Origin: Candidatus Gastranaerophilales bacterium
GTDB lineage: Bacteria; Cyanobacteriota; Vampirovibrionia; Gastranaerophilales; Gastranaerophilaceae
DNA length: 64,000 nucleotides
NCBI GenBank assembly: GCA_944326465.1
Contig: CALVEB010000004.1
Coordinates: forward strand, 21,717-85,716
Reading direction: 5' to 3'
Part shown: positions 56,344 to 57,451 of the stretch, one piece after another
Layout: each line of letters begins with the position of its first letter
Numbering within the stretch: position 1 is the first letter of the stretch
Translations under genes and position numbers: made by a program
Notes under the pieces: model-generated
The model's database searches: none
Told to the model about the DNA's origin: nothing
What the model saw: the letters and a program-made list of their open reading frames with translations, nothing else

Positions 56344-56371
56344 TAAAGTTTTCAAAAACATGTGCCGACAT
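56344..56371 (+). promoter_or_regulatory. Sigma-28 (FliA)-type promoter
   Basis: TAAAGTTT (56344-56351), 12-nt spacer, GCCGACAT (56364-56371). The enteric consensus is TAAAGTTT-N11-GCCGATAA and the Bacillus sigma-D consensus is TAAA-N15-GCCGATAT. It lies 43 nt upstream of ATG 56414. Confidence 0.65.
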
Positions 56372-56413
56372 GAAAAATACGAGTTACAAAACAAATGAAA
56401 GGAAGACAGAATT

Positions 56414-57451
56414 ATGGGAATGGCAGCATCACAAGCAAGATTTTTAGGCTTGACAGCAAGGAAGACCAATCTTGAATTTGAAGGCCAACAGATTAACCAA
56501 CAAAGAACATCTTTGTCTAACAAATCTGCTAACTACTATAACGACTTGTTAGGTATGTCTGTTCCAACTCCTCCTTCTGTCGATAACTATACAAAAACAG
56601 TTTACTCATTTGAAGACGGTGCATTGACTAACACAATCACAAGTATGATAGCAAAAGGAAACGGCAACTACACCGTAAGTTACTTGAGACAATGGGTGGA
56701 TGATTTCTCAGCAGTATCAGCAGCTACAAGTATTATTACAAGAAATGGCGGTACTTATTCAATCGGCGGTACACAATTAAGAATTATGACAGGTAACACT
56801 CCGACTGCTGCAGAGATTAAAGCTGATCCATACTTGACAGAATTGCAGCAAGATGGTCAATTAGCAGGTCTGGTTGCAGAAGAAAAAGAGTATATTACTC
56901 TCTTGAATAATAAATACAATGGCGGTGACCAGGCAGGTAAATGGTACGTAAGATATGTACAGGATACCACAACCGGAGATTGGACTCCTTACTTCTACAA
57001 AGAAGATGATGTTACAGGAGCTACATACAGCAACACTGGCGCATCATTGTCTAACATCCCTTGTTATACAATCGGTAGTGAACAAAAACAGGAAGAAGTC
57101 AAAGCTGTTGAAAATTGTAAGGTTGAAAAAGACTCTACAGGACGTTACATAAGCATTACAATCCCTGATGGCAACGGTGATCCTATCACTTATGCATTAA
57201 CTACCAACACAACTACTGACCAGGCTGCTTATGAAGACGCTATGAACCAGTACGAATATGACAAACACTTATATGATCAAGCTATTGACGAAATCAATGC
57301 TAAAATTGAAATCGTTCAGGCTGAAGACAAAAACTTAGAATTGAGATTGAAACAACTCGATACTGAACAAGATGCAATCCAAACTGAAATGGATTCTGTA
57401 TCAAAAGTTATCGAAAAGAACGTTGAATCTACATTCAAAACCTTCGGTTAA
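56414..57451 (+). CDS. Uncharacterised protein with conserved-looking helical termini and a Thr/Gly/Asn-rich central region (filament-subunit-like architecture)
   Basis: MGMAASQARFLGLTARKTNLEFEGQQINQQRTSL...[T/G/N-rich core]...EINAKIEIVQAEDKNLELRLKQLDTEQDAIQTEMDSVSKVIEKNVESTFKTFG. RBS AAAGGAAG. No flagellin signature recognised. Confidence 0.65.
   Translation: MGMAASQARFLGLTARKTNLEFEGQQINQQRTSLSNKSANYYNDLLGMSVPTPPSVDNYTKTVYSFEDGALTNTITSMIAKGNGNYTVSYLRQWVDDFSAVSAATSIITRNGGTYSIGGTQLRIMTGNTPTAAEIKADPYLTELQQDGQLAGLVAEEKEYITLLNNKYNGGDQAGKWYVRYVQDTTTGDWTPYFYKEDDVTGATYSNTGASLSNIPCYTIGSEQKQEEVKAVENCKVEKDSTGRYISITIPDGNGDPITYALTTNTTTDQAAYEDAMNQYEYDKHLYDQAIDEINAKIEIVQAEDKNLELRLKQLDTEQDAIQTEMDSVSKVIEKNVESTFKTFG

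Follow-up and report, generated by a model that had tools for sequence, protein, structure and literature searches.

The Gastranaerophilales/Melainabacteria are non-photosynthetic gut relatives of cyanobacteria. In a 64,000-nucleotide (nt) stretch of DNA from one such organism (Candidatus Gastranaerophilales bacterium, contig CALVEB010000004.1; the whole stretch is hereafter referred to as the window), a gene for a 345-amino-acid (aa) protein of no recognisable family is preceded by a promoter resembling those read by FliA, the sigma-28 factor of flagellar genes. An initial annotation, made from the sequence alone, had suggested that this protein may be a new sigma-28-dependent structural or surface component with the general architecture of a filament subunit. 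The locus comprises, from 5' to 3', a cobalamin riboswitch, three genes designated here g232, g501 and g180, a bipartite element, the promoter, the 345-aa gene and a terminator-like hairpin, while a FliA-like sigma factor gene and flhB are located elsewhere in the window (Table 1). Comparison with related loci, designated below by L numbers, indicates that the promoter is dedicated to a large, unnamed protein family found only in this bacterial order.

Table 1. Coordinates of the features discussed in the text. Positions refer to the window, except in the last six rows, where they refer to the related locus named.
Feature	Position	Strand	Remarks
Divergent FliA/WhiG-like sigma factor, candidate cognate sigma	18925-19578	-	TIGR02479 best match
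FlhB, flagellar type III export gate/switch protein	19604-20680	-	Pfam Bac_export_2, E 7e-114
AdoCbl-II cobalamin riboswitch	53287-53364	+	RF01689, 37.3 bits (threshold 36.5); 75 nt upstream of g232
g232	53439-54137	+	Zinc-ribbon-like CPxG...CPxC motif, then helices
g501	54215-55720	+	Membrane protein, 3-4 transmembrane segments
g180	55753-56295	+	No recognisable features
Bipartite element TTGTAACAATTTCGTAACATG	56309-56329	+	GTAAC half-sites at 56311-15 and 56322-26, -33 and -22 from the T of TAAAG
-35 element TAAAGTTT of sigma-28-type promoter	56344-56351	+	Lineage consensus TAAAG[T/A][T/A]T
12-nt spacer TCAAAAACATGT	56352-56363	+	Final T also conserved
-10 element GCCGACAT	56364-56371	+	Lineage consensus GCCGA[C/T]A[T/A]
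Predicted transcription start region	56377-56381	+	From the usual 6-9 nt between -10 element and start
Shine-Dalgarno sequence GAAAGGAAG	56397-56405	+	GAAAGGRA at the same position in related loci
Coding sequence, 345 aa, 'small' subfamily of the unnamed Gastranaerophilales-only family	56414-57451	+	ATG at 56414
Predicted N-terminal helix, residues 3-46	56420-56551	+	Near-invariant MGMAASQARFLGLTARK motif; AlphaFold2 model
Beta-rich hypervariable centre, residues 60-268	56591-57217	+	Insertion hot spots after residues 108, 132 and 257
Predicted C-terminal helix, residues 270-344	57221-57445	+	a/d heptads; near-invariant LDTE...FKTFG end; AlphaFold2 model
Terminator-like hairpin followed by T run, 3' of coding sequence	57629-57654	+	Consensus scan only
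AdoCbl-II riboswitch, L001	6775-6848		
AdoCbl-II riboswitch, L005	7054-7127		
AdoCbl-II riboswitch, L007	7103-7180		
AdoCbl-II riboswitch, L013	7055-7131		
AdoCbl-II riboswitch, L081	7081-7155		
AdoCbl-II riboswitch, L088	17871-17945		

The window promoter matches the enteric consensus (TAAAGTTT/GCCGATAA) at 14/16 positions; to reach the 15 of 16 given in the initial annotation, the enteric -35 element has to be combined with the Bacillus -10 element. As had been annotated, its spacer is 1 nt longer than the canonical one (N16 from TAAA to GCCGA and N12 between the octamers, compared to N15 and N11), and the gene downstream does encode 345 aa, although the distance from the end of the motif to the ATG is 42 nt rather than 43 nt. 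This is the only intergenic site of its type in the window, the other three TAAA-N14-17-GCCGA matches being located within open reading frames (ORFs), and the N11 form of the motif has no match in the window. With up to two mismatches allowed at N12, however, 0.15 matches are expected in the window by chance, and 15/100 shuffles contained at least one. Because of this expectation, the window alone provides weak rather than decisive evidence, and the match might simply have arisen by chance in AT-rich intergenic DNA.

The promoter was subsequently followed across relatives in two sets of loci, the first consisting of 80 loci from species-representative genomes, for which the upstream DNA of each homolog was taken (72 had enough upstream sequence), and the second, independent set consisting of 80 metagenome loci. 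The search pattern was TAAAG-N15-[GTA][CT]CG within 200 nt upstream of the gene. The motif was found upstream of 71/72 homologous genes in the genome-derived loci and of 62/69 family genes in the metagenome-derived loci. In 66 of the 71 genome-derived promoters the spacer is exactly N12, usually placing the motif 35-45 nt from the ATG, while the surrounding sequence has diverged; given this constancy, the extra nucleotide is the norm for the lineage and not a defect. Positions left free by the search pattern were also conserved (T before GCCGA in 58/66, G in 55/66, and A at position 7 of the -10 element in 57/66), giving a lineage consensus of TAAAG[T/A][T/A]T-N11-T-GCCGA[C/T]A[T/A], with which the window copy agrees at every position. 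The motif is also highly specific. On the two strands of 2.8 Mb there are 59 copies of its strict form; an ORF is called downstream of 48 of these, and in 46 cases that ORF is a family gene. In the metagenome set there are 48 copies in 1.6 Mb, 44 of them with a family gene downstream, so that across the 4.4 Mb approximately 90% of strict motif copies lie upstream of family genes.

A second conserved element precedes this promoter. When 130 unique family promoters are taken together, GTWAC, TTAAC and GTTAA half-sites cluster at -35 to -31 (92) and -25 to -21 (116) relative to TAAAG, and a strict pair of half-sites is present in 77/130, compared to 1.6% of random 65-nt windows. A second regulator or activator probably binds this bipartite element, which may otherwise act as an UP-like element. 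The motif, its spacer, its distance from the ATG and the upstream element have thus been kept in well over 100 diverged loci in which the surroundings have not, and these comparative data effectively refute a chance match, to which we assign next to no probability. Judged by its conservation, the motif is a genuine sigma-28-type promoter, as had been claimed, and it is specific to the family.

Several further features were observed in family promoters and leaders. In L009 (~9940-9975), L014, L120 and L122, the promoter spacer contains a run of ten C residues (TAAAGTTTTG-C10-GACCGTAT) and is 13 nt long rather than 12 nt, making these candidates for phase-variable promoters subject to slipped-strand mispairing; the tract did not vary in length among the four assemblies, all of which have C10. 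Two or three GGA motifs, in AAGGAAAC and in the Shine-Dalgarno sequence GAAAGGGAAC, are present in 76/117 unique family leaders, an arrangement reminiscent of CsrA sites in flagellin leaders, and a search of the family loci for a csrA gene found none. In one group of copies the leader is longer and contains a conserved hairpin, GAATTAC..GGTCGA..GTAATTC. Examples of these leaders come from L009-L011, L052 and L054, and from L037, L046, L047 and L048. Lastly, proteins of 552 aa (L069, 7055-8713; the same gene in L070) and 421 aa (L080, 8638-9903) are encoded just upstream of a family gene and display weak, sub-threshold EF-hand matches, with an HEVTH metalloprotease-like motif in the L080 protein. 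Since these two genes lie behind sigma-28-like motifs, they may be further members of the regulon.

The protein family downstream of the promoter is large. A word-indexed search returned 5054 homologs of the 345-aa protein at E<=1e-3, and an exhaustive search returned 2465 representatives of 50%-identity clusters. The nearest relatives, up to 96% identical, derive from metagenome-assembled genomes labelled Candidatus Gastranaerophilales or Melainabacteria, the family was found only in the order Gastranaerophilales, and every name supplied by the sources is 'hypothetical protein'. A metagenome scan for distant relatives in other lineages recovered close gut relatives only. Some public records with family genes are titled Clostridium sp. 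CAG:967, Brachyspira sp. CAG:484 or 'uncultured Muribaculaceae' (L020, L033, L051, L070, L076), titles that are likely taxonomic mislabels of Melainabacteria bins. Neither the target nor a second, larger subfamily described below matched Pfam, NCBIfam, PHROG or PADLOC above noise, and a sequence search of the PDB with the family profile returned nothing at E<=10. No relative was encoded among 2.9 million viral contigs, indicating that the family is not phage-borne. In the literature we found no description of the family or its regulon, and no microscopy of cultured Gastranaerophilales. Two or three family copies per genome, in some cases in tandem, were counted in at least 13 of the genomes represented by the best 80 loci. 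Unknown ORFs at 38738-42189 of the window were considered as paralogs and rejected, as they encode membrane proteins without the family termini.

An AlphaFold2 (AF2) model built on a 27-sequence alignment (predicted local distance difference test [pLDDT] 83.4, predicted template modelling score [pTM] 0.47) places a single helix at each end of the protein, the C-terminal one 75 residues long, around a beta-rich region that includes a helix at residues 149-168. The conservation profile, computed from 88 full-length representatives of 50%-identity clusters, follows the same division: identity to the window protein is 0.89 for residues 1-15 and 0.79 for residues 16-30, falls to 0.07-0.27 for residues 91-240, and rises again to 0.65-0.75 for residues 301-345. 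Family members range from 209 to 753 aa in length, with a mean insertion of +67 aa after residue 108. Both termini have the heptad spacing that had been noted in the initial annotation. In the N-terminal helix a hydrophobic stripe recurs every seven residues (L13, L20, I27, L34, Y41, M48; lag-7 autocorrelation 0.41), and in the C-terminal helix the a/d pattern is unbroken from Y273 to F344. The protein has no signal peptide and is rich in aromatic residues (22 Tyr and 3 Trp), with 2 Cys in addition. A conserved disulfide was considered and dropped, because Cys217 and Cys235 are both present in only 16/88 representatives. With invariant ends and a hypervariable middle, the conservation pattern is of the flagellin type, and in this respect the architecture had been described correctly in the initial annotation. 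The likeness to a filament subunit therefore holds as a pattern (ends, variable centre with inserts, multiple copies), but does not extend to detectable homology with axial proteins or to a significant fold match.

The evidence on homology and fold is as follows. The profile-profile comparison tool hhalign gave the family profile a probability of 0.1% against a flagellin alignment of eight species (E. coli, Proteus, Bacillus, Listeria, Azospirillum, Novosphingobium, Paraburkholderia, Ralstonia), and the large subfamily 0.4%, compared to 96.5% for the positive control of small against large subfamily. Against single E. coli FlgB/C/E/F/G/K/L, FliD/E/K/S/T/J/H and FlgD/M/N, all probabilities were <=1.2%. 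There was no Pfam or NCBIfam flagellin match at E<=1, and the Flg_bb_rod and Flg_bbr_C motifs (PF00460, PF06429) had no Pfam match in the target. The protein is thus not a recognisable flagellin, hook-associated protein, FlgM or chaperone, in agreement with the initial annotation. Foldseek comparison of the AF2 models with the PDB returned nothing at E<1e-3 for the target or the large subfamily. Flagellar filaments did head the ranking for the target (7sqd_A at E 0.018, 9gnz, 9atl), at non-significant template modelling (TM) scores of 0.13-0.2, which we read as a sign of shared topology rather than homology. A coiled-coil hairpin of the D0/D1 type, formed by the two terminal helices, is at most a possibility on this model. 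In BFVD, searched with the target only, phage tail, adhesin and PA14-domain proteins ranked first, weakly; one of them, a phage PA14-domain protein, narrowly passed E 0.001 (E 8.8e-4) but was not accepted as real because its TM score is ~0.2.

These results bear on the possibility that the protein is a true flagellin or hook-associated protein of a motile cell, diverged to an extreme degree and forming a rotating filament. Such a protein would be expected to have a promoter of this class, helices at its termini, a variable centre and several gene copies, and the flagellins at the head of the non-significant fold ranking would also fit. The hhalign probabilities speak against it, as does the single 44-residue N-terminal helix in place of D0 plus D1 helices. 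Moreover, the flagellins of flagellated Melainabacteria are canonical ones that have the TLR5 epitope (PMC3787301), so the family does not represent the flagellin of those organisms.

The flagellar gene content of the lineage provides further evidence on this point. Complete flagellar sets were reported in only 3/9 Gastranaerophilales genomes (Soo et al. 2014, PMC4040986), and Gastranaerophilus-type genomes keep FlgB, FlgC, FlgF, FlgG, FliE, FlhA, FlhB, FliI, FliJ, FliP and FliR and are without FliC, FliD, FlgD/E/K/L, FlgH/I, FliF/G/M/N, FliK, FliS and MotAB (PMC4040986). A 2026 preprint puts full sets at ~25% of genomes and offers a secretion hypothesis for the reduced sets (bioRxiv 10.64898/2026.04.24.720558). 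When the DNA on either side of family genes (~2.2 Mb) was searched with E. coli queries, only fliP/Q, fliN-like, fliI, flgG, flhA, flhB and fliA-like genes were detected, and none for fliC, flgE, flgK, fliD, fliG, motAB or the FliS chaperone; this absence carries little weight, since such a search may overlook diverged genes. Published annotations may indeed under-call diverged genes in 'partial' sets: homologs of FliMN_C, FliO and FliQ are detectable in L007 (1132-2676 and 2-526, both on the minus strand), a genome outside the 2014 table, in which FliM, FliN, FliO and FliQ are listed as absent. This under-calling counts in favour of a diverged flagellin. On the other hand, MotAB, FliG and FlgE are among the genes not found in the flanking DNA, and the family is present in Zag_221 (L080), a genome with a partial set that is inferred to be non-motile. 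Altogether, we consider a diverged flagellin of a motile cell very improbable. As the lineage mostly lacks flagellin, hook and motor, 'flagellar structural component' is probably the wrong frame for the protein, which is better described as a possible substrate or product of a flagellar regulatory and export module put to a new use.

A candidate sigma factor and an export gene are encoded within the window. The FliA-like sigma factor gene is present at the coordinates given in the initial annotation and lies directly downstream of flhB, but its match to TIGR02479 (E 2e-22, 80 bits) is below the 189.6-bit cutoff. Pfam recognises only region 4 in this ORF, which aligns with E. coli FliA along 229 residues at 23% identity (E 2e-7), and the divergence of the sigma factor may be related to the longer promoter spacer. 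In FlhB, the NPTH autocleavage motif, on which the change from early to late export substrates depends, is intact (VVTNPTHIA in translation). The adjacency of flhB and the sigma factor gene recurs in L017 and L075. Following these two genes on the same strand is a 390-aa ORF (17649-18821, minus strand) that has a single transmembrane segment, at the N-terminus, and matches no family. In L043, L050 and L079, homologs of this ORF (41-47% identical) have a family copy within 4-7 kb.

An association with flagellar genes was found for the second subfamily, whose members are larger (~550-610 aa). Its 578-aa representative in L007 (2866-4602, plus strand) starts with MGLAASQARLLTITARKSDCEF and ends with ...LDLKMKNLDTEISSLTTEYDTIKSVISKNIEKSFKRYDA, and resembles the target at the termini only (42% over 66 aa, E 3e-10; 36% over 61 aa, E 1e-8). 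The subfamily has 1259 homologs, all unnamed, with a better conserved middle, and its promoter is of the same type (TAAAGATT-N12-TGTCGTAA or TGACGTAT) with the same upstream element. The AF2 model (pLDDT 74.6) has helices at residues 2-52 and 512-573 around a mixed alpha/beta core, and its top Foldseek ranks, all non-significant, include a flagellin, PrgA and the FlgK/FlgL junction complex. In L007, L019 and L056, the gene is the divergent neighbour of a fliMN_C-fliO-fliP-fliQ operon; in L007 this operon includes fliMN_C (1507-2676, 389 aa), fliO (1132-1494) and fliP (481-1122), all on the minus strand, and the intergenic gap is 190 nt. Elsewhere the large subfamily lies 8-10 kb upstream of the target's block with no fliMN alongside, and in L088 it is present with fliMN not adjacent. 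Related loci encode FliMN_C, FliO, FliP, FliQ, FliI and FlhA, and with FlhB in the window an export apparatus is present that looks functional.

At the target locus, the immediate upstream neighbours suggest a different association. The same cobalamin riboswitch precedes g232 in 6/7 orthologous loci tested, at 39.8-44.1 bits. The order g232-g501-g180-target was found in ~30 of the first 84 loci, where the genes outside the block vary, and over 166 loci the same-strand upstream neighbours include g180 in 41, g501 in 37 and g232 in 33. None of the three proteins matched Pfam, NCBIfam, PHROG or PADLOC, and hhalign comparison with E. coli flagellar accessory proteins gave <=4%. They may constitute an undescribed B12-responsive system. 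The target could then be a surface or envelope part of a B12-responsive uptake or scavenging system, with the sigma-28-type promoter as a secondary, internal one. Besides the riboswitch itself, this would account for the joint movement of the four genes amid changing flanks. The target promoter elements start 16 nt past the g180 stop, a gap that leaves no room for a terminator and so makes read-through from the B12-controlled unit possible. However, about three-quarters of the loci and the entire large subfamily are located away from the operon, all copies retain their own promoter, and the four proteins resemble no known B12 binder or transporter. We therefore view a role in B12 acquisition as improbable.

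The window also encodes type IV pilin-like proteins. Prepilin-type N-terminal methylation motifs are present in three of its ORFs (24185-25336 on the minus strand, 37936-38661 and 45935-47380 on the plus strand), one of which also matches DUF6613, and pilin-like DUF6613 genes flank the family block in L081-L084.

We tentatively propose, with rather less than even confidence, that the family is a late, sigma-28-class substrate of a reduced flagellar export system and assembles via its terminal coiled coils. The promoter motif with its family specificity and conservation, the conservation pattern of the protein and the genomic association are direct observations; from these we infer which sigma factor acts, and the export, assembly and location of the protein. 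In the proposed scheme, the FliA-like sigma factor, a divergent one encoded beside flhB, would direct RNA polymerase to the TAAAGWWT-N12-TGCCGAYAW promoter, which is dedicated to the family and preceded by the phased GTWAC-N6-GTWAC element. The product, lacking a signal peptide, would be handed to the retained export apparatus (FlhA/B, FliOPQR, FliI/J, the FliMN-like protein and the rod). After export, the N- and C-terminal heptad helices would pack as coiled coils into a periplasmic or surface structure, with the variable beta-rich insert pointing outward, and the larger subfamily, which shares the termini and promoter, would take a junction- or base-like role.

A number of results weigh against this proposal. 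Neither the profile comparisons with flagellin and the other axial and accessory proteins nor the fold searches yielded a significant match, and neighbour clustering and hhalign detected no chaperone-, anti-sigma- or FlgM-like partner near family genes. The family is only loosely linked to flagellar genes, and not in every genome, and the position of the gene behind the cobalamin-riboswitch operon in 41/166 loci hints at a different functional link. The source genome itself could be of either the reduced or the fully flagellated type. Published surveys report the lineage to be without FliF and the L and P rings, which leaves no obvious route by which an exported product could pass the outer membrane. 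In addition, some non-motile bacteria use FliA-family sigma factors to run non-flagellar genes, as Chlamydia does with sigma-28 (hctB) and Streptomyces with WhiG.

This last point raises the possibility that the FliA-family sigma factor has been repurposed and that the protein is a non-exported coiled-coil scaffold of the cytoplasm or envelope, its middle only weakly constrained and its promoter a regulatory leftover no longer coupled to flagellar export. In favour of such a scaffold, the protein lacks a signal peptide and shows no homology to known type III substrates, no chaperone gene was detected nearby, and most family copies lie among housekeeping genes; the non-flagellar regulons of Chlamydia and Streptomyces offer precedents. 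Conserved ends around an exchanged middle, lengths that differ by several hundred residues and multiple copies are, in contrast, typical of exposed polymer subunits and not of internal scaffolds. Selection maintains the export core, including FlhB with its intact NPTH motif and the FliMN-like protein, and nothing else is an obvious substrate for it; one subfamily also abuts fliMN-fliOPQ. We regard a repurposed sigma factor with a cytoplasmic or envelope scaffold as the main rival of the export proposal, if somewhat unlikely.

A more specific version of the export proposal holds that in most Gastranaerophilales, which are non-motile, a flagellar remnant (export gate, ATPase, FliMN-like sorting protein, rod and FliA) has been turned into a machine that exports and assembles a non-flagellin filament or surface array, with a terminal coiled-coil core and a diversifying, possibly phase-variable outer domain facing the host. 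We consider this doubtful, and raise it because, if true, it would constitute a third kind of appendage derived from the type III secretion system of flagella, in addition to the flagellum and the injectisome. The question of why most Gastranaerophilales keep a seemingly 'useless' subset of flagellar genes has remained unresolved since 2014, and the promoter class, its probable sigma factor and the abundant product family together are a candidate answer. The lineage is widespread in human and animal guts and enriched in non-industrialised populations. If exported, this hypervariable and possibly surface-exposed family would be a leading candidate in interactions with host or phages, and a new case of re-use of the flagellar machinery; if not exported, it would still represent a clean sigma-28 regulon in a non-motile lineage and a large protein family that databases do not describe. 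What is new here is a sigma-28 late-gene module with a new product family, which would become categorically new if an appendage were demonstrated.

Among known systems, flagellin (FliC/Hag; PF00669, PF00700) shares with the target a sigma-28-type promoter, terminal heptad helices, the lack of a signal peptide, a hypervariable centre with inserted domains, large length variation and several copies per genome. It differs in that the two have no sequence or profile similarity, the target has a single 44-residue N-terminal helix with no ND1a/ND1b segment, is rich in aromatic residues and has a promoter spacer 1 nt longer, and the family occurs in genomes reported to be without hook, cap and motor. 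FlgK, FlgL and FliD resemble the family in having terminal helices around a folded insert and in being late sigma-28-dependent substrates, and the large subfamily is likewise single-copy and more conserved; in contrast, hhalign probabilities are <1%, Foldseek E values are 2.7-9.4, and no FlgN- or FliT-like chaperone is encoded nearby. EspA, the type III-exported subunit of an injectisome filament, is non-homologous to flagellin and polymerises via terminal coiled-coil helices, which is the kind of assembly proposed for the target, although EspA is ~190 aa long, has no large variable beta domain, is not sigma-28 dependent, and showed no similarity in the PDB sequence or fold searches.

With regard to regulation, the Chlamydia sigma-28 and Streptomyces WhiG regulons are comparable in that sigma-28-type promoters serve non-flagellar genes in a non-motile organism. 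Their targets are a histone-like protein or sporulation regulators rather than multi-copy proteins with conserved ends and a variable middle, and we know of no sigma factor gene adjoining flhB in either. The basal bodies of Buchnera, reduced flagellar systems kept as protein exporters, are likewise found in a non-motile, host-associated lineage that has an export core and rod and is without flagellin or motor. Here, unlike in Buchnera, a FliA-like sigma factor and a dedicated, abundant family of candidate substrates have been kept as well, a substrate of a kind not previously proposed for the Gastranaerophilales.

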